Source of the DNA: a virus
Length of the DNA stretch: 5,435 nucleotides
Virus record (IMG/VR): IMGVR_UViG_3300029622_000217
Location: 1-5,435 of that record
Direction: 5' to 3' (one strand)
Below, in pieces: positions 1 to 5,435 of the stretch. The notes below the pieces were generated by a model. That model was not told the DNA's origin. It searched no databases and saw nothing but the letters and a program-made list of their open reading frames with translations. The position numbers and the translations under genes were made by a program. The first letter of the stretch is position 1. Every line of letters starts with the position of its first letter.

Positions 1-1097
1 CTGCCTTTGCTGCATCTGATACGGAAGCGGTTATGCCCTCTCTTGATGATTTTTATAGTCATCATGGTTCTTGGTTTGTTTGGCGTAAGTGTAATTATCT
101 TGGTGTAGATTACTTAGAACTTCTTTGCTCTCCTATTGCTGTATCTGGCTCTTCTTATACATTGCCGTATTCTATTTCTTATTCTACGAATGCGTTTGAT
201 GTTAATTATCAAGCTAATAGTTCTGACAAAACTTATGCTTATGCTTGCGCTTTTCCTTATCCTCTTCGTGGTGCTTCTGGTCTTTGGTCTGAACTCCCCT
301 CTTTCTCTGTTGGTTCTGGCATTTCCGGTGTAACTTCTGTTGTCCGCGTTTATTCTACTTCTGGTCAACCGTCTGGTACTTATGGTTTTTTAACTTCTTC
401 CTTTAGTCGTTCAGACCGTATTCTTTCTTTCGGTAACACTGCCGATTCTTCTTCTGGTTCTTCTACTGATACTTTTGATGTTCTTAGTTTATCTTCCCCC
501 TTTTATTCATATCCTTTTGCATTTCGTCAGATTTCTTCTTCTAATGTAACTGGCTATAGTTTACAGGGTGGTGACTCTGCTTTTATTGTTCCTCCTAATA
601 ATTATTCTGATCTTCTGTATATCGATCTCAGTTCTAATCGTTATCTTTTAAAGACTAGTTCTTTTGTTCCTTATCCCTCTGGGTATACTGTCCCTTCTTC
701 TGATATCGGTTTTGTCTTTGTTCAAAAGCCTTCTTTCTCTTTTGTTACTTCTGCTTCTGACTTTGATATTACGGGTTCTTTCGCTTTTTCTCTCCTTGTT
801 CCTGTTTCTCGTCTTCCTGACGTTAAGCTTGGAGACTGGCTTTCCGATTCCCCCGAGGATTTGCAGGATGCCATTACTAATGAATTTGGCATTGATTCCG
901 GTACTCTACAAGATTCCAAGGATAACTTGAATTCTTGGAATTCTGCTTCGTCCGTAGATTCAGATATTGCTTCCTCTGCTTCTGGTCTTCTTGGCGGTCT
1001 TTTTCAGAATTTAGGCACGTTTCTCTTTTCTGTTTCTCTCCTTTGCTTCGGTGCTGTTGTTCTCCGAATGTTTATTAGAAAGGCGGTTGAGGGATGA
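1..1097 (+). CDS. pIII-like minor coat/adsorption protein (receptor-binding protein with C-terminal membrane anchor). 5'-partial in the linear window; the true start is GTG at 5255 in the circular genome, giving about 392 aa in total.
   Basis: The frame is open from base 3 (codons GCC TTT GCT GCA...) and is continuous with 5255..5435 across the 99-bp overlap. The N-terminus reads VKKKQRCLFKRFAALVAVLILVFSLSVPAFA|ASD, a typical Sec signal peptide with an AXA cleavage site. The body is Ser/Thr/Gly-rich. The C-terminus (LLGGLFQNLGTFLFSVSLLCFGAVVLRMFIRKAVEG) is a hydrophobic anchor followed by basic residues, as in pIII. Codons end mostly in T, like the rest of the genome. The stop is TGA at 1095-1097, overlapping the next ATG (ATGA). 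Confidence 0.6.
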   Translation, partial: AFAASDTEAVMPSLDDFYSHHGSWFVWRKCNYLGVDYLELLCSPIAVSGSSYTLPYSISYSTNAFDVNYQANSSDKTYAYACAFPYPLRGASGLWSELPSFSVGSGISGVTSVVRVYSTSGQPSGTYGFLTSSFSRSDRILSFGNTADSSSGSSTDTFDVLSLSSPFYSYPFAFRQISSSNVTGYSLQGGDSAFIVPPNNYSDLLYIDLSSNRYLLKTSSFVPYPSGYTVPSSDIGFVFVQKPSFSFVTSASDFDITGSFAFSLLVPVSRLPDVKLGDWLSDSPEDLQDAITNEFGIDSGTLQDSKDNLNSWNSASSVDSDIASSASGLLGGLFQNLGTFLFSVSLLCFGAVVLRMFIRKAVEG

Positions 1098-1225
1098 GTT
1101 TTCTTGATTTCTTCAAATCAGTTTTTGGCCTTTTCGGTTCTGGTGGCGCTCTCGTTATTGCCGTTGTCGTTTTTCTTGTCGGTCTTGGTATTTATAAGTT
1201 CGTAAAGGATTGGTTGCCATGGTAG
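1094..1225 (+). CDS. 43-aa coat-like small membrane protein (MSFLDFFKSVFGLFGSGGALVIAVVVFLVGLGIYKFVKDWLPW), possibly a major or minor capsid protein with no signal peptide (Pf3-like architecture).
   Basis: The ATG overlaps the pIII-like TGA stop (ATGA), which implies translational coupling. The protein has an acidic/polar N-terminus, a hydrophobic core of about 20 aa and a basic/aromatic C-terminus (YKFVKDW). T-ending codons match the genome and contrast with the G-ending codons of the overlapping frame. Stop is TAG at 1223-1225. Confidence 0.5.
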   Translation: MSFLDFFKSVFGLFGSGGALVIAVVVFLVGLGIYKFVKDWLPW

Positions 1226-1386
1226 ACTTTGTTTCCGCTCTTGGTGTTTTTACATCGTTTATCGCTAATGTGCTTTCTATTTCCTTTTTTGGCTTTGGTA
1301 CTTTTGGCAATTTTATTTTGGTTTGTCTTCTGCTTTCGCTTGTTGGCTTTGTTCTCCGTGGCCTTTGGGATGGAGGTGATAAATAA
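1219..1386 (+). CDS. 55-aa hydrophobic small protein with two predicted TM segments (pVI-like or pVII/pIX-like minor virion/assembly protein).
   Basis: The ATG at 1219 overlaps the preceding TAG (ATGGTAG), and the stop TAA at 1384-1386 overlaps the next ATG (TAATG). Sequence is MVDFVSALGVFTSFIANVLSISFFGFGTFGNFILVCLLLSLVGFVLRGLWDGGDK. Its position directly after the pIII-like gene matches inovirus gene order. Confidence 0.45.
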   Translation: MVDFVSALGVFTSFIANVLSISFFGFGTFGNFILVCLLLSLVGFVLRGLWDGGDK

Positions 1387-2000
1387 TGGAAATTCCTACT
1401 ATTATTAAAACTTGGCTTGATACTGACGGCGTTACTGTCTACACAGTGCAGTATAAAGACGGTAGTACCTGTGACATGACCGTCCAGCAGTACGATTATC
1501 TTAAGGCATCCGCCGACGCTGTTGTTAAACTCGATTCTCAGCAGGATGCACAAGAAGTTTCTTCTCCTGAAGCTCTTTTTTCTGGTGAACCTGCACAAAA
1601 CATTTCTGAAAGTCCCGACCTCCGCGAAGACTATGTTCCGCAGGAAGATGAATTGCCGTTTGAAGGGAGTTTAACAGCTTATGATGACCGCGCTTCAGAT
1701 ACTCCGGCTTTGTATGCTAATCTCCCTGCTGTCTCTAATAGTTTCACTTCTATTATGGATTGGTTCGGTGATACGTTTTTCGTCGAACGCTCTGAGACGG
1801 TGCACAAGTCCGGCTATACGTCTGAAAGGTACTCCTATAATAGTTCAACTCAACTTATTCAGCTTCCTTATGAGGAGGATTCCACTATTACATCTCAAGT
1901 TCTCAATCCGCAGGCTTGCGTTTCTGCTTTGCTTGTTGTCCTTGTCTTCGTTACTACTGTTACTTGGATTAAAAACGCGATTTGGGGGCGCATGTGTTAA
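1386..2000 (+). CDS. 204-aa hypothetical acidic protein with a single C-terminal TM anchor (ACVSALLVVLVFVTTVTWI). Function unknown; not a canonical inovirus core gene.
   Basis: An RBS GGAGGTGAT lies 6-7 nt upstream of ATG 1386. It is the long ORF from the six-frame track. It is strongly acidic (many D/E) with an N-terminal beta-like stretch (TVYTVQYKDGSTCDMTVQQYDY). Codon usage over 1430-1520 is noticeably richer in C/G-ending codons than the neighbouring genes. Stop is TAA at 1998-2000, overlapping the next ATG. Confidence 0.55.
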   Translation: MEIPTIIKTWLDTDGVTVYTVQYKDGSTCDMTVQQYDYLKASADAVVKLDSQQDAQEVSSPEALFSGEPAQNISESPDLREDYVPQEDELPFEGSLTAYDDRASDTPALYANLPAVSNSFTSIMDWFGDTFFVERSETVHKSGYTSERYSYNSSTQLIQLPYEEDSTITSQVLNPQACVSALLVVLVFVTTVTWIKNAIWGRMC

Positions 2001-2113
2001 TGGAAATTCTTCCTTTTCAGTATTGTTTCGGAATCTTCTCTGTTCCTGAAATTGGTTATTTCATTATTTTCGCTGCTGTTTTTTCTATGTTGGTTCTTCT
2101 GTTCCGTCCGTGA
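2000..2113 (+). CDS. 37-aa hydrophobic peptide (MEILPFQYCFGIFSVPEIGYFIIFAAVFSMLVLLFRP), candidate pVII/pIX-like minor coat protein.
   Basis: Start/stop overlap TAATG with the upstream gene. There is a single TM-length hydrophobic stretch. No strong RBS is present (GGGGG about 11 nt upstream). Size and position are typical of tiny inovirus tip proteins. Stop is TGA at 2111-2113. Confidence 0.35.
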   Translation: MEILPFQYCFGIFSVPEIGYFIIFAAVFSMLVLLFRP

Positions 2114-2211
2114 CAGGTGCCATAAATATCTTTATGAAAGGGTGATGACTTCAGGCCGCTACATCTATTCTTGCAACTCTGCTTTCCTTGGTCGGTGAGT
2201 TCTTTACATCG

Positions 2212-2340
2212 ATGATTACTTGGATGGGTCAGCTCGTCGATTTTTATGAATCCCAGCCTATCCTTCTTGTCTTTGTTATCCTCACTATCGCGGGCATTGT
2301 TCTCCGTATTCTTCGCCGCTGGATCCCCGGTCGTAGTTAA
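2212..2340 (+). CDS. Major-coat-protein-like small protein. Minimal form is 42 aa (MITWMGQLVDFYESQPILLVFVILTIAGIVLRILRRWIPGRS). The same frame is open from 2149 (63 codons) and may hold a longer precursor with a signal-peptide-like segment (see finding).
   Basis: It has the classic pVIII architecture: acidic N-terminus (D/E/E), an 18-aa hydrophobic TM and a basic C-terminus (RILRRW) suited to DNA contact. It ends 14 nt before a strong intrinsic terminator, as gVIII does in Ff phages. The upstream in-frame sequence LQAATSILATLLSLVGEFFTS resembles a signal-peptide h-region, but it is separated from the ATG at 2134 by TGA TGA. Confidence 0.45.
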   Translation: MITWMGQLVDFYESQPILLVFVILTIAGIVLRILRRWIPGRS

Positions 2341-2353
2341 ACGCTGAGAGAAA

Positions 2354-2395
2354 ACGCCGCCGACCATTTTAATGGTCGGCGACGTTTTCGTCTTT
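2354..2395 (+). terminator. Rho-independent terminator after the coat-gene cluster.
   Basis: A 14-bp GC-rich stem ACGCCGCCGACCAT (2354-2367) pairs with ATGGTCGGCGACGT (2372-2385), with one mismatch and loop TTTA. It is followed by TTTTCGTCTTT. Confidence 0.7.
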
Positions 2396-2411
2396 AGAAA
2401 GGATTTATATT

Positions 2412-3035
2412 ATGCTTTATGGTATTCTCATCTTTTGTATTTGCTGGCTTTTTGTATATATCGATAATTATTGCAAAAATCCCTACAAGTTAGAAGCTGT
2501 TGTTGGTTCAAAAGGCTCTGGTAAATCTCTGTATATGTCTCGCGTTGCTGATAAGTGGCTACGTTCTGATAAGGGGCTTATCTATAGCAATATGGGTATT
2601 GGTTATGAGTTAGATTCGGAATATTGGAAACAAACCTTTCTCCCTGATTCCCTTATTTTAATTGATGAAATAGGTGTGCTTCATTCCAACCGCGACTTTA
2701 AAACTATGCCCCGTGAAGCTGTCGAGTTTTTCAAGATGCAACGCAAGTATCACTTGACTATTATTGTATCGTCTCAGACCATGGACTTTGATAAAAAAAT
2801 TCGTGACCTTTGCGATCGCATTTATCTTTGCAACCGCATTGGCTGGTTCTGCCGTCTAACTCCTTATCGCTCTTGCATTGCTATGGAACATCGCCCCGAG
2901 GGAGGTCAAGAGCTTGTTAACACTGTGCGCAAGGCAGGCCGGGCAAGGTGGTATACTATCCCCAAGTCTGTTAAGCAGGTAAGTGCTTTAGAATACGATA
3001 CAGAGCAGGTTATTAGCAAGACCCCCTCTAAATAA
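2412..3035 (+). CDS. Zot/pI-like P-loop NTPase, the filamentous-phage assembly/export ATPase. It is short (207 aa) and contains the N-terminal ATPase domain only.
   Basis: Walker A is VVGSKGSGKS. Walker B is LILIDEIGVLH, which compares with LLVLDECG in M13 pI. An RBS AAAGGA lies about 9 nt upstream of the ATG. An unusual hydrophobic N-terminal extension (MLYGILIFCICWLFVYI) precedes the P-loop. There is no C-terminal TM or periplasmic domain. Stop is TAA at 3033-3035, followed by a terminator. Confidence 0.75.
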   Translation: MLYGILIFCICWLFVYIDNYCKNPYKLEAVVGSKGSGKSLYMSRVADKWLRSDKGLIYSNMGIGYELDSEYWKQTFLPDSLILIDEIGVLHSNRDFKTMPREAVEFFKMQRKYHLTIIVSSQTMDFDKKIRDLCDRIYLCNRIGWFCRLTPYRSCIAMEHRPEGGQELVNTVRKAGRARWYTIPKSVKQVSALEYDTEQVISKTPSK

Positions 3036-3041
3036 AAACTT

Positions 3042-3079
3042 CCCCCCGTGCCCTTTAGGGTCAGGGGGGTTGTTTTTAT
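3042..3079 (+). terminator. Intrinsic terminator downstream of the zot-like gene.
   Basis: CCCCCC(gtg)CCC-TTTA-GGG(tca)GGGGGG forms a hairpin over 3042-3069 with a small internal loop. It is followed by TTGTTTTTATT. Confidence 0.6.
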
Positions 3080-3108
3080 TCTTCGTTTTGTTGCGGCGAT
3101 AGGCGGCG

Positions 3109-3137
3109 AAAAAAAATGAGGGGCTTTAGCCCCTCAT
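3109..3137 (-). terminator. Intrinsic terminator for the minus-strand gene. It converges with the + strand terminator, giving a bidirectional termination zone at 3040-3140.
   Basis: A perfect 9-bp stem (3116-3124 pairs with 3129-3137, ATGAGGGGC/GCCCCTCAT) has loop TTTA. On the + strand it is preceded by A8 (3109-3116), which is T8 after the hairpin on the minus strand. The stop codon of the minus-strand CDS lies inside the stem. Confidence 0.7.
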
Positions 3138-3370
3138 GCGTGCAAGAATCTTTTTCCGTCCCATGTCTTTGCGATTATTTCCCAATTTTCTTCGTCTAAA
3201 TATTTCGTTGTATCTATGTATTCAATGTTGATTCGTTTAATAATTGCGAATCTGTAGAATTCTCCTTTTTCGTTCGCTGCGCTGTATTCAAAGCATTTGT
3301 AGTAAAAGTTTTTTGTACATACGCCTTCGTTTCTCCAGACTTTTCTGAGAAATTCTTTTTTGACTTTCAT
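3134..3370 (-). CDS. 78-aa minus-strand protein, divergently transcribed from rep. Candidate phage regulator, immunity protein or accessory protein. No recognisable HTH.
   Basis: It is the only long ORF on the minus strand with a full expression context. AAGGAG sits 9 nt upstream of the ATG (+ strand CTCCTT at 3380-3385). A near-consensus promoter lies upstream and a T8 terminator downstream. Sequence is MKVKKEFLRKVWRNEGVCTKNFYYKCFEYSAANEKGEFYRFAIIKRINIEYIDTTKYLDEENWEIIAKTWDGKRFLHA, rich in K/E/Y/W. Confidence 0.6.
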   Translation of the reverse strand: MKVKKEFLRKVWRNEGVCTKNFYYKCFEYSAANEKGEFYRFAIIKRINIEYIDTTKYLDEENWEIIAKTWDGKRFLHA

Positions 3371-3399
3371 TGGTTTTTCTCCTTTCCTTTTATGCTTCT

Positions 3400-3428
3400 A
3401 TATTACCATAGGATGTTCTATTTGCCAA
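3400..3428 (-). promoter_or_regulatory. Sigma70-type promoter for the minus-strand gene.
   Basis: On the minus strand the -35 is TTGGCA (+ strand TGCCAA at 3423-3428). A 17-nt spacer follows. The extended -10 is TGgTAATAT (+ strand ATATTA at 3400-3405). The predicted TSS is about 20 nt upstream of the RBS. Confidence 0.55.
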
Positions 3429-3440
3429 TAGAAATTTCTA
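3416..3440. promoter_or_regulatory. Overlapping perfect palindromes, candidate operator sites over the -35 of the minus-strand promoter.
   Basis: TTCTATT-tgcc-AATAGAA (3416-3433) has 7-bp perfect arms. TAGAAATTTCTA (3429-3440) is a 12-bp perfect palindrome. Both sit exactly on the -35 region of the divergent promoter. Confidence 0.35.
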
Positions 3441-3615
3441 ATTTTTTGGAAAATCGGCCGCAGTTGCCACGTTTAGTCACGCGATAGCGTCTCCACCGCG
3501 TCCCCCGTCCCCGCAAGGGCAAAGCCCTTGCCCTTCCTAAACATACCGGCAGCGGCTTCCGTTGCGCTGCTGGCTTGCAGCCGGTGGGCGTTCGTGTAAT
3601 ACGCCCACCTTTTTT
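3440..3615. other. GC-rich structured intergenic region. Candidate replication origin (+ and - ori) and packaging-signal hairpins.
   Basis: This stretch is over 60% GC in a roughly 40-45% GC genome. It contains a perfect hairpin GCAAGGGC-AAA-GCCCTTGC (3513-3531), an imperfect CCGGCAGC...GCAGCCGG pairing (3546-3584), and the hairpin GGTGGGCG-[TTCGTGTAATA]-CGCCCACC (3583-3609) followed by T6. It lies immediately upstream of rep, as the Ff intergenic region does. Confidence 0.5.
3583..3615 (+). other. Stem-loop with an AT-rich loop followed by a T-run. Candidate + strand origin nick hairpin, or a terminator insulating the rep promoter.
   Basis: An 8-bp perfect stem GGTGGGCG/CGCCCACC has an 11-nt loop TTCGTGTAATA, followed by TTTTTT (3610-3615). 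The loop motif TTCgTgTAATA loosely resembles the Ff nick region TTCTTTAATA. Confidence 0.35.
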
Positions 3616-3625
3616 AAATTTCCTC

Positions 3626-3654
3626 TTGACAACTTATTTATACTATGGTAACAT
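3626..3654 (+). promoter_or_regulatory. Candidate rep promoter.
   Basis: The -35 is a consensus TTGACA (3626-3631). After a 17-nt spacer the -10-like hexamer is TAACAT (3649-3654); an alternative -10 is TATACT (3639-3644). If this promoter is used, the transcript would start near 3661, downstream of the ATG at 3645. Confidence 0.35.
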
Positions 3655-3686
3655 TTAGCTATGAAAATGAAGGGTGGTTTTCTCAC

Positions 3687-4823
3687 ATGAAAACGGTCGT
3701 CAAACTTGACTATGCTACATTTGCTTTTGAACAGGGTTCAATTTCTATTCCCAAAATCGAAGATGCGATTGCTCAGTGTGATTTGCACTTTGCGCAGACT
3801 TCTAACGCAAGTGAGTATTCCCCCTACAATTCTCCTGCGGGTCTTTTCTATAAGCCGAACAACGGCGCGAAACAGTCTCCGCACTCTTTACATGTGTCCG
3901 GTCATGGTTGTGAGCTTTTCCGTTCCACCTTGCCGCGTCTCGCGTCACTGATGCAGGATGGTCACGAATTCGGTCACTTTTCCCGTCTTGATTTTTGTTT
4001 CGATGTTGTTATGACAAAGCAACGCTGGCGCGAGTTCTATTTGGGTGTAATTTCTGCTTCTGTTGCTGAAATGAATAATCCTGAAAAGGCGCGTAAAGTT
4101 CGCAAGTTCATGTATCAGGGTTACGGGGATTCTACTACCGTCTATATTGGTCGTAGAACGTCTTCTGTGGTCTTCTGCCGTATCTATAATAAATCTCTTC
4201 AAGACCCTGAAAATAAGCTCTGTGCGGCATCTGGTGAGCTTCTGGATTGCGCCGATGATTCCTATATCATTCGTTACGAGATGGAGTTGAAATATGTTTC
4301 TCGTGTGCGTGCTGGTTCTCGTTCCGTTTATGACCCCTCTCCCCTCTTTTGGTCTTATTATGAAGACCCTGATATGCTCTTTGCTTATCTCCGTAAGGTC
4401 TGGAACCGCTACGGAAATGAAACTCTTCTTCCCGATGGTTGGGAAGATATGGAATTTGTAACAGATCTCGAAGCCCGTCGCATTCCCTTTATTAAGGACT
4501 TATCGCATCCCCTTTGTGATGACCTTGCTCAAAAGTTCTCCGTTTCTATCCATACCGAAGAACAAAAAATGTCTTATGTTACTAATTTCTTCGGTCACCG
4601 GATTATTGATATCCTGCTTTATCGTCCTGAGTTGCTTTTCCTTGCTTGTTGCAAGTGGGAGCAGTTCTATAATGATCGTCTTCCGTTCTCCCCTCTGGCT
4701 CTGATACAGGAAGTCGCGCAGTTCTCGGAATCTTCCCGCATTTCCTATGAAGAATTCCGTGAAGTCGCTGATGACCCTTCTCTCTTTAGTGATGATGGGT
4801 TTGAAGATATATCTTTATTCTGA
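3687..4823 (+). CDS. Rolling-circle replication initiation protein (Rep_trans / gpII-like). The ORF is open from ATG 3645 (392 aa), but ATG 3687 (378 aa) is the likely start.
   Basis: The motif TTVYIGRRTSSVVFCRIYNKS matches the Rep_trans signature (YIGsrkS...RIYdK) with a catalytic Tyr region, and an E-x-E-L-K motif (RYEMELKYV) is present. ATG 3687 has the RBS AAGGGTGG 9 nt upstream. ATG 3645 has no SD and overlaps the predicted -10. Stop is TGA at 4821-4823. Confidence 0.7.
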   Translation: MKTVVKLDYATFAFEQGSISIPKIEDAIAQCDLHFAQTSNASEYSPYNSPAGLFYKPNNGAKQSPHSLHVSGHGCELFRSTLPRLASLMQDGHEFGHFSRLDFCFDVVMTKQRWREFYLGVISASVAEMNNPEKARKVRKFMYQGYGDSTTVYIGRRTSSVVFCRIYNKSLQDPENKLCAASGELLDCADDSYIIRYEMELKYVSRVRAGSRSVYDPSPLFWSYYEDPDMLFAYLRKVWNRYGNETLLPDGWEDMEFVTDLEARRIPFIKDLSHPLCDDLAQKFSVSIHTEEQKMSYVTNFFGHRIIDILLYRPELLFLACCKWEQFYNDRLPFSPLALIQEVAQFSESSRISYEEFREVADDPSLFSDDGFEDISLF

Positions 4824-4844
4824 AATGTAAGGAGTTTCGAACTT

Positions 4845-5087
4845 ATGCGGATTTTGGTAGTCGGTAAATCCCGCCACGCTGGTAAGTCTAAAGCTGGCAA
4901 AGATTATGATTTTACAACAATTATGTTTGAGTATGATATGCGTTCAAACAATGATAACGAGGGCGTTTCGGTTGATAGTATCAATGTTAACGCCTCTATT
5001 ATGCCCTATGCGATGTTTGAAGTTGGTGCTATGTATAATTTTGATTTTGATCGCAATGGGTATCTCCTTAGTATTGAAAAATTGTAA
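4845..5087 (+). CDS. 80-aa protein immediately downstream of rep. Putative ssDNA-binding protein (gV-like), called by synteny only.
   Basis: A perfect RBS AAGGAG (4829-4834) lies 10 nt before the ATG. The small size and rep-distal position are characteristic of the inovirus gV ssDNA-binding protein. Sequence is MRILVVGKSRHAGKSKAGKDYDFTTIMFEYDMRSNNDNEGVSVDSINVNASIMPYAMFEVGAMYNFDFDRNGYLLSIEKL. No domain could be verified by eye. Confidence 0.4.
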   Translation: MRILVVGKSRHAGKSKAGKDYDFTTIMFEYDMRSNNDNEGVSVDSINVNASIMPYAMFEVGAMYNFDFDRNGYLLSIEKL

Positions 5088-5114
5088 TAATAACATATCT
5101 CTTTCAATCTCTCT

Positions 5115-5130
5115 GGCCGCTTCTGCGGCC
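5115..5130. other. Perfect GC hairpin GGCCGC-TTCT-GCGGCC.
   Basis: It is a 6-bp all-GC stem with a 4-nt loop, sitting 28 nt after the ORF80 stop. It is not followed by a T-run on either strand, so it looks like a structural, packaging or processing signal rather than a canonical terminator. Confidence 0.4.
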
Positions 5131-5133
5131 TAT

Positions 5134-5207
5134 GGCGGGTTGGTGTAATGGTAACATGCAAGGGGCTGAGCCTTGATTTGGTAGTTCGAATCTATCACCC
5201 GCAACCA
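5134..5207 (+). tRNA. tRNA-like element (cloverleaf-compatible; anticodon-position CUG, so Gln-like). It may be a non-canonical tRNA gene, a tRNA-derived attP-like segment or a structural mimic.
   Basis: It can be folded by hand. The acceptor stem is GGCGGGT/ACCCGCA (6 of 7 bp, with a G1-A72 mismatch). Positions 8-9 are U8 G9. The D-stem is GTGT/ACAT and the D-loop AATGGTA carries the conserved GG. The anticodon stem is CAAGG/CCTTG with loop GGCTGAG. The variable region is ATTT. The T-arm is a textbook GGTAG-TTCGAAT-CTATC, followed by discriminator A and an encoded CCA. The non-canonical features are G32 G33 in place of the usual pyrimidine at 32 and U33, and the 1-72 mismatch. Confidence 0.45.
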
Positions 5208-5254
5208 TTACGGATTGACCTCCGTTATTCGATGCCGTGAAAGGTGGTGGTGAA

Positions 5255-5435
5255 GTGAAGAAAAAGCAGCGGTGCTTATTTAAGCGCTTCGCCGCCCTTG
5301 TCGCGGTTCTGATTCTTGTTTTCTCTCTTTCTGTTCCTGCCTTTGCTGCATCTGATACGGAAGCGGTTATGCCCTCTCTTGATGATTTTTATAGTCATCA
5401 TGGTTCTTGGTTTGTTTGGCGTAAGTGTAATTATC
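5255..5435 (+). CDS. N-terminal part (signal peptide region) of the pIII-like adsorption protein. The gene continues at window position 1 in the circular genome.
   Basis: GTG start at 5255 with RBS AAGGTGG (5241-5247) 7 nt upstream. It is in frame with feature 1..1097 through the 99-bp overlap. It encodes VKKKQRCLFKRFAALVAVLILVFSLSVPAFA|ASDTEAVMPSLDD... Confidence 0.55.
   Translation, partial: MKKKQRCLFKRFAALVAVLILVFSLSVPAFAASDTEAVMPSLDDFYSHHGSWFVWRKCNY
5337..5435. repeat. 99-bp terminal direct repeat identical to window positions 1-99. This is a circular-genome or assembly overlap, or a tandem-copy junction.
   Basis: Exact 99/99 identity by direct comparison, so the unit length is 5336 bp. 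Confidence 0.95.

Follow-up and report, generated by a model that had tools for sequence, protein, structure and literature searches.

A tRNA gene conserved in small gut inoviruses is a candidate initiator for a coat protein gene without a canonical start codon

The 5,435-nucleotide stretch analysed here, called the window throughout (positions 1 to 5,435 of the IMG/VR virus record IMGVR_UViG_3300029622_000217), is a complete inovirus genome, and this work concerns a tRNA-shaped element that lies in the interval between the small open reading frame (ORF) ORF80 and the g3-like gene, together with the major coat protein gene of the same genome (Table 1). An exact 99-nt direct repeat at the window ends (1-99 = 5337-5435) shows that the unit genome is circular, with 5336 nt, and every clear gene is on the plus strand. 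The genome was recognized as that of an inovirus by its Zot (PF05707) and Rep_trans (PF02486) domains, its small hydrophobic coat protein, its matches to PHROG families and its small, circular, one-strand organization. Its DNA is 81-82% identical to porcine Inovirus sp. records.

Table 1. Features of the window, with coordinates counted from its first letter
Feature	Coordinates	Strand	Basis
Coat-gene ribosome-binding site GAAAGGG (2136-2142) with its spacer TGA TGA CTT	2136..2151	+	
Major coat protein gene, read from CAG 2152: Q AATSILATLLSLVGEFFTSMITWMGQLVDFYESQPILLVFVILTIAGIVLRILRRWIPGRS*	2152..2340	+	
Zot-type ATPase gene	2412-3035	+	PF05707
Rep gene	most likely start 3687	+	PF02486
ORF80, small protein gene directly 5' of the hairpin and tRNA	4845..5087	+	
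GC hairpin GGCCGC-TTCT-GCGGCC	5115..5130	+	sequence, flank comparison, DNA fold centroid
tRNA gene, 74 nt, anticodon CTG (5166-5168)	5134..5207	+	ARAGORN, Rfam RF00005, homologues, covariation
g3-like gene with signal peptide	GTG 5255..5435, on across the circular junction into 33-1097	+	PHROG 24417
p43, p204 and p37 genes		+	

ARAGORN called a tRNA-Gln(ctg) at 5134-5207, the sole tRNA of the window, and the Rfam family RF00005 matched the element with 41.0 bits (gathering score 29, E = 2.6e-6; its relatives score 47-63 bits), flagging 1:72 as a non-standard pair. The molecule has U8, a GG in the D-loop, a TTCGAAT T-loop, an anticodon arm formed by the 5-bp stem CAAGG/CCTTG (with the pairs A29-U41, G30-C40 and G31-C39) and the loop GGCTGAG (G32 at 5164 and G33 at 5165), and an acceptor end with a G1.A72 mismatch, G2:C71, C3:G70, A73 and an encoded CCA (5205-5207). 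The original prediction, made from the letters alone, had folded these 74 nt by hand into such a cloverleaf, and the sequence of 5115-5254 agrees with it in U8, the D-loop GG, TTCGAAT, A73, CCA, the 5-bp anticodon stem and the perfect GC hairpin upstream. The T-arm that it described as perfect is not strictly so, as the T-stem GGTAG/CTATC holds one G.U pair (50:64). It had also proposed an ARAGORN run, with the result given above, and a comparison of the fold with shuffled controls. The folding energy of the single sequence is unremarkable (z = -1.1), which is usual for tRNAs, and the support for the fold comes from comparison: among 28 distinct homologues pairing is found in 93% of the cells, against 77% in shuffles and 34-50% for slid registers, both sides have changed in 12 of the 21 stem pairs, and none of 500 shuffles reaches any of five fold measures. 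On this comparative evidence, the element is a real tRNA gene.

The GC hairpin is separated from tRNA position 1 by TAT (3 nt, with U at -1) and is kept in the DNA fold centroid. Other clades carry a hairpin at the same place with unrelated sequences (GAGGGG-TTAT-CCCCTC, GAGGGC-TTCG-GCCCTC and GAGAGTGG-TTCG-CCGCTCTC). The window hairpin was not reported as a terminator, as no T-run follows it; it could protect the 3' end of the rep/ORF80 message after RNase P cleavage, or it could act as an attenuator. In an Oscillospiraceae prophage (contig L182), palindromic operator-like repeats (TTGAAAGTGCACTTTCAA) are present just 5' of the tRNA and again 3' of the coat genes (795-830 and 1340-1420), which hints that the tRNA-coat unit may be under repressor control in that phage.

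About 130 small inovirus genomes or prophages have a homologous tRNA that likewise follows Rep and a small gene resembling ORF80, and the order Rep, small gene, tRNA is a conserved synteny. When annotated phage records were searched at the DNA level, distant small inoviruses from pig and rodent faeces matched the window over the tRNA only, and in each of the first seven relatives examined the tRNA(CUG) has a normal CUCUGAA/C loop and scores 50-63 bits in Rfam. For the clade of the window (clade A), protein-guided searches yielded 37 IMG/VR contigs and 80 mostly human-gut metagenome contigs in which Zot is 92-99% identical. The tRNA and the CAG motif of the coat gene, described below, are both present in 99/122 clade-A contigs and in 85/90 of those of at least 4.8 kb; the contigs without the tRNA are short fragments or cut prophages, and nearly all genome-length contigs have it. 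The family extends to clades B and C, to further lineages, and to genome contigs of Oscillospiraceae and Lachnospiraceae. A single genome scan gave phage-borne copies and unrelated cellular tRNA-Gln. An exact 15-mer search for relatives of the AGU tRNA of MT135290 gave chance matches only, and its relatives were found by BLAST on phage records. Rare structural variants of the clade-A tRNA occur: the tRNA of L159 (1578-1646) has an 8-nt anticodon loop (CTACTGAA) and a 1-nt deletion in the D-loop, those of L148 and L195 have a 1-nt D-loop insertion, and that of L249 has a G.U at 3:70.

The coat gene sits just 5' of zot and encodes a small product with a hydrophobic core and a basic tail that is homologous to the coat protein of relatives lacking the tRNA. 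The two TGAs at 2143-2148 are stop codons in the coat frame, and no conserved in-frame ATG, GTG or TTG is found in the gene before codon 20-21, where the first conserved ATG is located. In the 43 clade-A genomes first aligned, the arrangement GAAAGG(A/G)TGATGAnTT-CAG is conserved, with CAG directly after the in-frame stops, and CAG at 9 nt from GAAAGG(A/G) is invariant in 114 clade-A genomes (107 distinct sequences). In the 43 genomes CAG is followed by variable codons with in-frame indels and then by conserved residues. Because the third positions of codons 5-21 vary under fixed amino acids in the 107 distinct sequences, these codons must be translated, and codon-position entropy is that of coding sequence from just after CAG. 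The GAAAGG motif and its spacing to CAG are the same as before the ATG of zot and of p43 and before the GTG of the g3-like gene. A search for a Shine-Dalgarno (SD) sequence followed at 4-10 nt by CAG and an ORF of at least 25 codons returned one match per genome, the coat gene, save for MT135287, which has two. Three other starts were considered and rejected. TTG 2188 is replaced by CAG in 11 of the 43 genomes of the first alignment, and the codons upstream of it, like those upstream of ATG 2212, clearly code for protein. An out-of-frame ATG in the clade-A spacer (2145) combined with a frameshift was discarded since this ATG is absent in L209 and in clade B and abuts the SD; it is also ruled out by the frame relation of the spacer ATG changing between bajarodino viruses 35 and 23 (see below).

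In eight further lineages the same arrangement, an SD with CAG 7-9 nt downstream, opens coat proteins that are unrelated (bajarodino viruses 11 and 50, MT135287, MT135310, MT135288, MT135307, and contigs L174, L175, L178, L180 and L182), and MT135307/309 show it too. In bajarodino 11 and 50 the tRNA is directly followed by AAAGGGGG, 8 nt and CAG, with no in-frame canonical start upstream of the CAG and no coding sequence (CDS) annotated for the coat. A tRNA(CUG) followed by GGAAAGGAGG, 7-9 nt and a CAG that opens a coat-like ORF is also found in genome contigs titled Oscillibacter sp. MSJ-31, Acutalibacter, Oscillospiraceae and Lachnospiraceae. The Oscillibacter prophage (L180) belongs to an isolate. 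In the relatives without the tRNA (bajarodino 60, bajarodino 79 and Dulem 75), the homologous coat gene starts with ATG or GTG after a normal SD; these controls are few, three in number, as a closer Zot alignment gave clade A only, from IMG/VR and metagenomes. The alignment of the clade-B coat protein with a virion-protein PHROG covers positions 25-80 of the latter and so leaves out the leader. In clade C the g3-like gene that follows the tRNA reads GAAAGGATGAT(T/G)TATCAG (L007, which is MT135287, reverse-complement 700-730; L347, which is MT135310, 479-520), and it may be a second CAG-started gene with the same SD spacing, but here an in-frame ATG abuts the SD.

The anticodon and the start codon change together. 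The window and the other phages of the CUG class pair a tRNA(CUG) with the coat codon CAG; a tRNA(AGU) occurs with the coat codon ACT in MT135284, bajarodino 58, bajarodino 35 and MT135290, and a tRNA(UGU) with ACA in bajarodino 23. The AGU and UGU tRNAs are clearly homologous to the others, having the same D-arm, 74 nt and, in most, an unpaired 1:72. The aligned region that runs from the tRNA to the coat start is nearly the same in bajarodino 35 and 23. The differences are that the anticodon is AGU in the former and UGU in the latter, with stem changes that compensate each other, that the first coat codon is ACT in the former and ACA in the latter, and that the intergenic spacer differs in length by one base. 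Because the spacer ATG is in frame in only one of the two phages, it cannot be the start. Across the sequences compared, the codon at the start spacing always complements the anticodon of the tRNA, in three codon states. The discriminator base also changes with the anticodon class, being A73 in the CUG class, U73 in MT135284, bajarodino 58 and MT135290, and C73 in bajarodino 35 and 23, a shift that would be expected if a different synthetase charges each class. The first option of the original prediction, a divergent tRNA with anticodon CUG, was right as far as it went and missed the link to the coat start codon.

Among 41 distinct tRNA sequences (42 were found, and one 75-nt copy was left out of the tabulation), position 1:72 is G.A in 28, C.A in 8, A.A in 3 and U-A in 2, so it is unpaired in 39/41. 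The G1-A72 mismatch pointed out from the window alone is thus a conserved feature of the family, also unpaired in 26 and U-A in 2 of the 28 aligned distinct sequences. G-C at 2:71, C-G at 3:70, G-C at 4:69 and A73 are invariant in the 41-sequence set, an invariance that is partly built in because the pattern fixed GCGGG at 2-6 and CCGCAACCA at the 3' end. In other CUG-class lineages 2:71 and 3:70 are kept, and 4:69 and the pairs below differ (CGCCGGA, CGCGGCG, CGCGAGU). A 1:72 mismatch together with 2:71 and 3:70 has been described as the major formylase determinant, and natural initiators include au/GC/GC anticodon stems (PMC5389676). Such a stem is present in the window and in most lineages (12 distinct sequences share the pattern). 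The 3' pattern GTTCGAWTC-N5-CCCGCAACCA belongs to an initiator-type tRNA-Met(CAT) in 93/105 of the viral tRNAs retrieved with it, and the best blastn matches after the inoviruses are tRNA-Met genes.

The body of the tRNA is that of a tRNA-Gln, with a 7-nt D-loop (AAUGGUA) and a 4-nt variable loop, and a search with the D-arm motif gave mostly phage tRNA-Gln(UUG) (60/119 matches). Descent from tRNAfMet was ruled out by the lengths of the D-loop and the variable loop and by the D-arm motif. The tRNA-Gln(CUG) of Patescibacteria and Planctomycetota resembles the phage tRNA in its 74 nt, AAUGGUA D-loop, 4-nt variable loop, GCGGG/CCCGC acceptor and A73, and this cellular type is likely the ancestral one; however, cellular copies have U1-A72, save one planctomycete copy, whereas G, C or A occupies position 1 in 39/41 of the phage copies. 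In L233, about 4.5 kb from a clade-A prophage fragment, there is a canonical initiator tRNA-fMet (8851-8926, minus strand; CGCGGAG...CUCCGCA-A, three G-C pairs) that has 2:71 to 5:68 and A73 in common with the phage tRNA. A tRNA-Leu is also present there, HipA and HTH genes lie between the prophage fragment and the tRNAs, and the latter are presumably host genes.

We propose, with a probability of roughly 0.7, that the element is a phage-encoded initiator-type tRNA serving the non-AUG start codon of the coat gene. The tRNA would probably be co-transcribed with rep and ORF80 and freed by RNase P and 3' trimming; we infer this release from the rep-ORF80 transcript because of the U at -1, the upstream hairpin and the fact that no promoter-like site was seen directly in front of the tRNA. 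Charging would be set by the anticodon, presumably with Gln for CUG, and the charged tRNA would possibly be formylated. In bacteria, an unpaired 1:72, G2:C71, C3:G70 and A73 direct formylation, favour IF2 and disfavour EF-Tu. The unpaired 1:72 would accordingly keep the phage tRNA away from EF-Tu, steering it to initiation and not to elongation, and IF2 would bring it to the P site, where it would pair with the CAG located 9 nt 3' of the ribosome-binding site. Synthesis of the major coat protein could in this way be started on a gene without an ATG, GTG or TTG start. There is a precedent for the decoding step, as an engineered tRNAfMet(CUA) starts at UAG with formylglutamine, and IF3 checks codon-anticodon pairing and not AUG as such (PMC11744186). 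It also seems rather likely, judging from the genomes compared, that these phages have a natural, self-encoded form of orthogonal initiation, in which a private coat start, reassigned in evolution among CAG, ACU and ACA, is read by a tRNA whose 1:72 is unpaired and which does without the three G-C pairs regarded as a requirement for bacterial initiators, so that both coat synthesis and the first residue would depend on the phage tRNA. As to the benefit, the tRNA might gate coat synthesis, give the leaderless coat protein a defined N-terminus other than Met, or insulate the phage from control by the host.

Several observations weigh against the initiator proposal. With respect to the tRNA itself, the three G-C pairs are not conserved, the commonest clade-A anticodon stem being A-U / C-G / G-C, and the AGU and UGU tRNAs lack G30, a base that is crucial in the E. 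coli initiator. U11:A24, an elongator-like pair where A:U would be expected of an initiator, is present in 40/41 sequences, and the row of L159 is frame-shifted by its D-loop deletion. Two copies, those of L175 and L182, have a U1-A72 pair, and they are phage-borne, since a CAG-start coat gene follows them and phage genes adjoin; the formylase determinants are not family-wide, as C2-G71 and U3-A70 occur in bajarodino 35 and 23. In addition, native Patescibacteria tRNA-Gln have the same GCGGG/CCCGC acceptor with A73, and a planctomycete contig (L186, 2363-2436) carries, in a tRNA cluster Tyr-Phe-Ala-Gln-Thr, a tRNA-Gln(CUG) with C1.A72, so an unpaired 1:72 in a tRNA-Gln is not exclusive to these phages. 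Because cellular tRNA-Gln copies share these traits, the acceptor stem is not diagnostic alone, and as a sign of an initiator it is suggestive, not decisive. As for the coat gene, an in-frame ATG or GTG lies in or against the ribosome-binding site in L007, L347, L344, L345, L352 and L172, and a canonical coat start is conceivable in these few lineages. Lastly, the G33 of the window breaks the nearly universal U33, and in the minimum-free-energy fold the anticodon arm of the window tRNA shifts into a stem with a 3-nt loop.

This loop is peculiar to the window. The GGCUGAG loop with G32 and G33, which the original prediction had read correctly, is absent from the approximately 115 other clade-A copies compared, all of which have U33: the loop is CTCTGAA in most of them and TTCTGAG or GTCTGAG in the window's own subtype, which varies at 32, 33 and 38. 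An exact search with the 17-mer CAAGGGGCTGAGCCTTG gave six IMG/VR matches, all in large contigs without the tRNA and attributable to chance, and no other inovirus contig. The U33 and purine 37 of a standard tRNA-Gln loop are found in the relatives with CUCUGAA, and the window has lost the former. The suspicion that this might be no standard decoding tRNA, based on G1.A72 and G33, was well placed, but one of these is a conserved family feature and the other a private one, and their meanings differ. One explanation is that the window copy is a defective allele, or a sequencing or assembly error, with its U-turn destroyed by G32/G33, whatever the family does, and the uniqueness of the loop, the mispaired anticodon arm of the minimum-free-energy fold and the 41 bits in Rfam, against 50-63 in relatives, speak for it. 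However, all four stems are intact with compensated differences from the relatives, and the anticodon, A37 and the CAG of the coat gene are all kept. Moreover, because L142 (GTCTGAG) carries G32 already, G33 is a single private substitution (U33G), one step further. We regard a defective or erroneous copy as a tentative, somewhat doubtful explanation, and it is limited to the window copy and compatible with an initiator role of the family. The copy may be weakened by G32/G33, or these bases may be an assembly error.

The rival readings of the whole family appear less probable. ARAGORN and Rfam call the element a tRNA-Gln, its body is tRNA-Gln-like and the window phage prefers CAG (29) over CAA (15), all of which would suit an ordinary elongator tRNA-Gln(CUG) that boosts CAG decoding, the match to the first coat codon being incidental. 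Nevertheless, Gln codons are only about 3% of the 1411 codons, and the unpaired 1:72, which disfavours EF-Tu in E. coli, is maintained. An elongator also leaves unexplained the missing canonical start of the coat gene, the ACT or ACA at the coat start of the AGU and UGU relatives, and the ATG or GTG there in the relatives without the tRNA, so we consider it unlikely. Still less probable is a role as a replacement or decoy against anticodon nucleases of the host, with loop changes such as G32/G33 evading cleavage. Anticodon-loop mutations that let phage tRNAs escape tRNA-targeting defences have been reported (PMC10264068), and the window subtype does vary at 32, 33 and 38, but most copies have an ordinary CUCUGAA loop, and this role would not account for the missing start codon or for the matched changes of anticodon and start codon.

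The two remaining options of the original prediction fare worse. A tRNA-shaped fold of the phage single-stranded DNA (or RNA) that served in priming of the complementary strand, in processing or in packaging would suit a virion with a single-stranded genome, and the element is located in one of the few non-coding stretches, with a hairpin adjoining. However, the conservation is tRNA-specific (T-loop, D-loop GG, A37, CCA and anticodon), the region folded as DNA is unexceptional (z = -2.0) and forms no cloverleaf, and in other lineages the element varies in position relative to the other non-coding regions but stays beside the coat gene. As nothing was found in favour of this option and the conserved anticodon, T-loop and CCA are left unexplained by it, we consider it very improbable. 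We give the least credence of all to an attP-type, tRNA-derived segment for integration into a host tRNA gene. Some inoviruses do integrate at tRNA genes (PMC6813254, PMC8530359) and phages of this family do occur as prophages, but the tRNA is full-length, with compensatory stem changes and a position 1 unpaired with A72 in nearly all copies, the genome scan found no host gene matching its 3' half as an att core, and two prophages that carry the tRNA internally contradict the option. In the clade-A prophage of L198, a 50.7-kb contig with host-like genes beyond the phage (HSP20 and an SLH-domain protein), the ends are a 12-nt direct repeat (GCATCCCCTTAG, 777-788 and 5794-5805) inside rep ('SHPLS'), and the intact, complete tRNA lies between them at 1416-1489. 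A 12-mer repeat alone is near chance in 6.6 kb, and this one coincides with the homology breakpoints and with the 5017-nt length of the unit. Because the bounding repeat lies inside the rep coding sequence, integration splits rep. No phage integrase was seen in L198, and host recombinases may have been used. In L189 the tRNA stands between rep and the g3-like gene, away from the phage-host junction, which adjoins a gene that was read by eye, with no family search, as tyrosine-recombinase-like.

Other features of these genomes deserve mention. In the window, the best promoter-like site (3626-3654, TTGACA-17-TAACAT with TG) overlaps the first ATG (3645) of the long rep ORF, and because it covers that ATG and the PHROG profile aligns from residue 15, Rep probably starts at the ATG at 3687. 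A reverse-strand ORF (3134-3370, 78 aa) occupies the place of a repressor gene annotated in bajarodino viruses. The small gene at the place of ORF80 in bajarodino 11 and 50 is annotated as 'RstB-like', and tblastn gave no match between ORF80 and these proteins. Between the coat gene and zot there is a near-perfect, terminator-like hairpin (2350-2389, GAAAACGCCGCCGACCATT-TTAA-TGGTCGGCGACGTTTTC) that gives spurious mir-278 Rfam matches on both strands; GC hairpins are also found 3' of the coat gene in the relatives without the tRNA. The Ff phages have a terminator after gene VIII, and the window hairpin is likely a post-coat terminator as well. In public records, MT135307 (L345) has a neighbouring gene annotated from inside the tRNA (tRNA 1650-1723, CDS 1664-2986), and PQ006160 (L351) has a reverse-strand CDS (5262-5537) laid over the tRNA and the coat-start region. 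Such CDS over the tRNA, like the missed coat genes, are consistent with gene callers failing on a non-canonical start. In PQ006110 (L350, bajarodino virus 58; 2953-3100), the g3-like CDS is annotated from an ATG that overlaps the first tRNA bases, and it runs in frame through the whole tRNA into the signal peptide, with no SD or start between, which would be either a mis-annotation or a sequence serving both as tRNA and as coding leader.

Some tRNAs outside the family, or doubtful, were also encountered. MT839577 (tRNA-Met) and L417 (tRNA-Lys with G1.A72) were rejected as members because they are not inoviruses. Large tailed-phage contigs, L417 among them, carry tRNAs with an initiator-like acceptor (N1.A72, A73, CCA) and non-CAU anticodons: L039 (105-178, minus strand) CAG, L067 (2379-2454, minus strand) CUG, L082 (3826-3900, minus strand) CUC, and L417 (1911-1984, plus strand) CUU. 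Within the short loci examined around them, no SD-proximal orphan start matching these anticodons was found. In two related contigs, L174 (542-634, minus strand) and L187 (448-538, minus strand), ARAGORN gave an unusually long 'tRNA-Arg(tcg)' of 91-93 nt, roughly 1 kb away from the tRNA of the phage; this call may be spurious.

Compared with known systems, the proposed phage initiator resembles bacterial tRNAfMet in its unpaired 1:72, G2:C71, C3:G70, G4:C69, A73 and encoded CCA, in the au/GC/GC stem of the window, a natural initiator variant (PMC5389676), and in its proposed role, in which the first codon would be read in the P site after an SD. It differs in that its anticodon is CUG (AGU or UGU in relatives) and not CAU, the amino acid presumably not being Met, in its tRNA-Gln-like body (7-nt D-loop, 4-nt variable loop, U11:A24) without conservation of the three G-C pairs or G30, and in that it comes from a 5.3-kb phage and appears to serve one gene. 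The closest systems in their working are the engineered initiators made from tRNAfMet with CUA, where an altered anticodon starts translation at the matching non-AUG codon and the mutant tRNA is Gln-charged and formylated (PMC11744186); preprints describe orthogonal initiators with other anticodons, such as AAC. However, those are laboratory constructs on a tRNAfMet body, whereas the phage tRNA is natural, its body is of the tRNA-Gln kind, and it and its target start codon have co-evolved through three or more codon/anticodon states. Phage elongator and suppressor tRNAs, which serve in codon compensation, stop-codon recoding or nuclease evasion, are similar in that a virus carries its own tRNA to change the decoding of messages, but they act in the A site on internal or stop codons, are usually found in large tailed phages and have a paired 1:72, whereas the family described here is tied to one start codon in filamentous phages of about 5 kb.

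Full-text searches turned up no earlier description of tRNAs in small gut inoviruses, nor of a natural initiator tRNA for a non-AUG codon; in the large inovirus surveys, tRNAs are mentioned only as sites of integration or as an aid to host prediction (PMC6813254, PMC8530359). If the proposal is true, this would be the first natural case known to us of a bacterial-type gene starting at a sense codon unrelated to AUG by means of a dedicated viral initiator tRNA, the non-AUG initiator tRNA having been until now an engineered trick. The family would also be a natural test bed for the rules of initiator identity, as the 1:72 mismatch is kept and the three G-C rule is not. It would explain why public records lack, or annotate wrongly, the coat genes of these widespread phages of human, pig and rodent guts, and gene finders and phage annotation pipelines would need to admit tRNA-matched start codons. 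For synthetic biology, these phages would offer ready-made orthogonal pairs of start codon and tRNA. Finally, the finding would raise new questions on the phages themselves, such as the control of coat output by the tRNA, the presence of a non-Met N-terminus in thousands of displayed copies of the coat protein, and host range.

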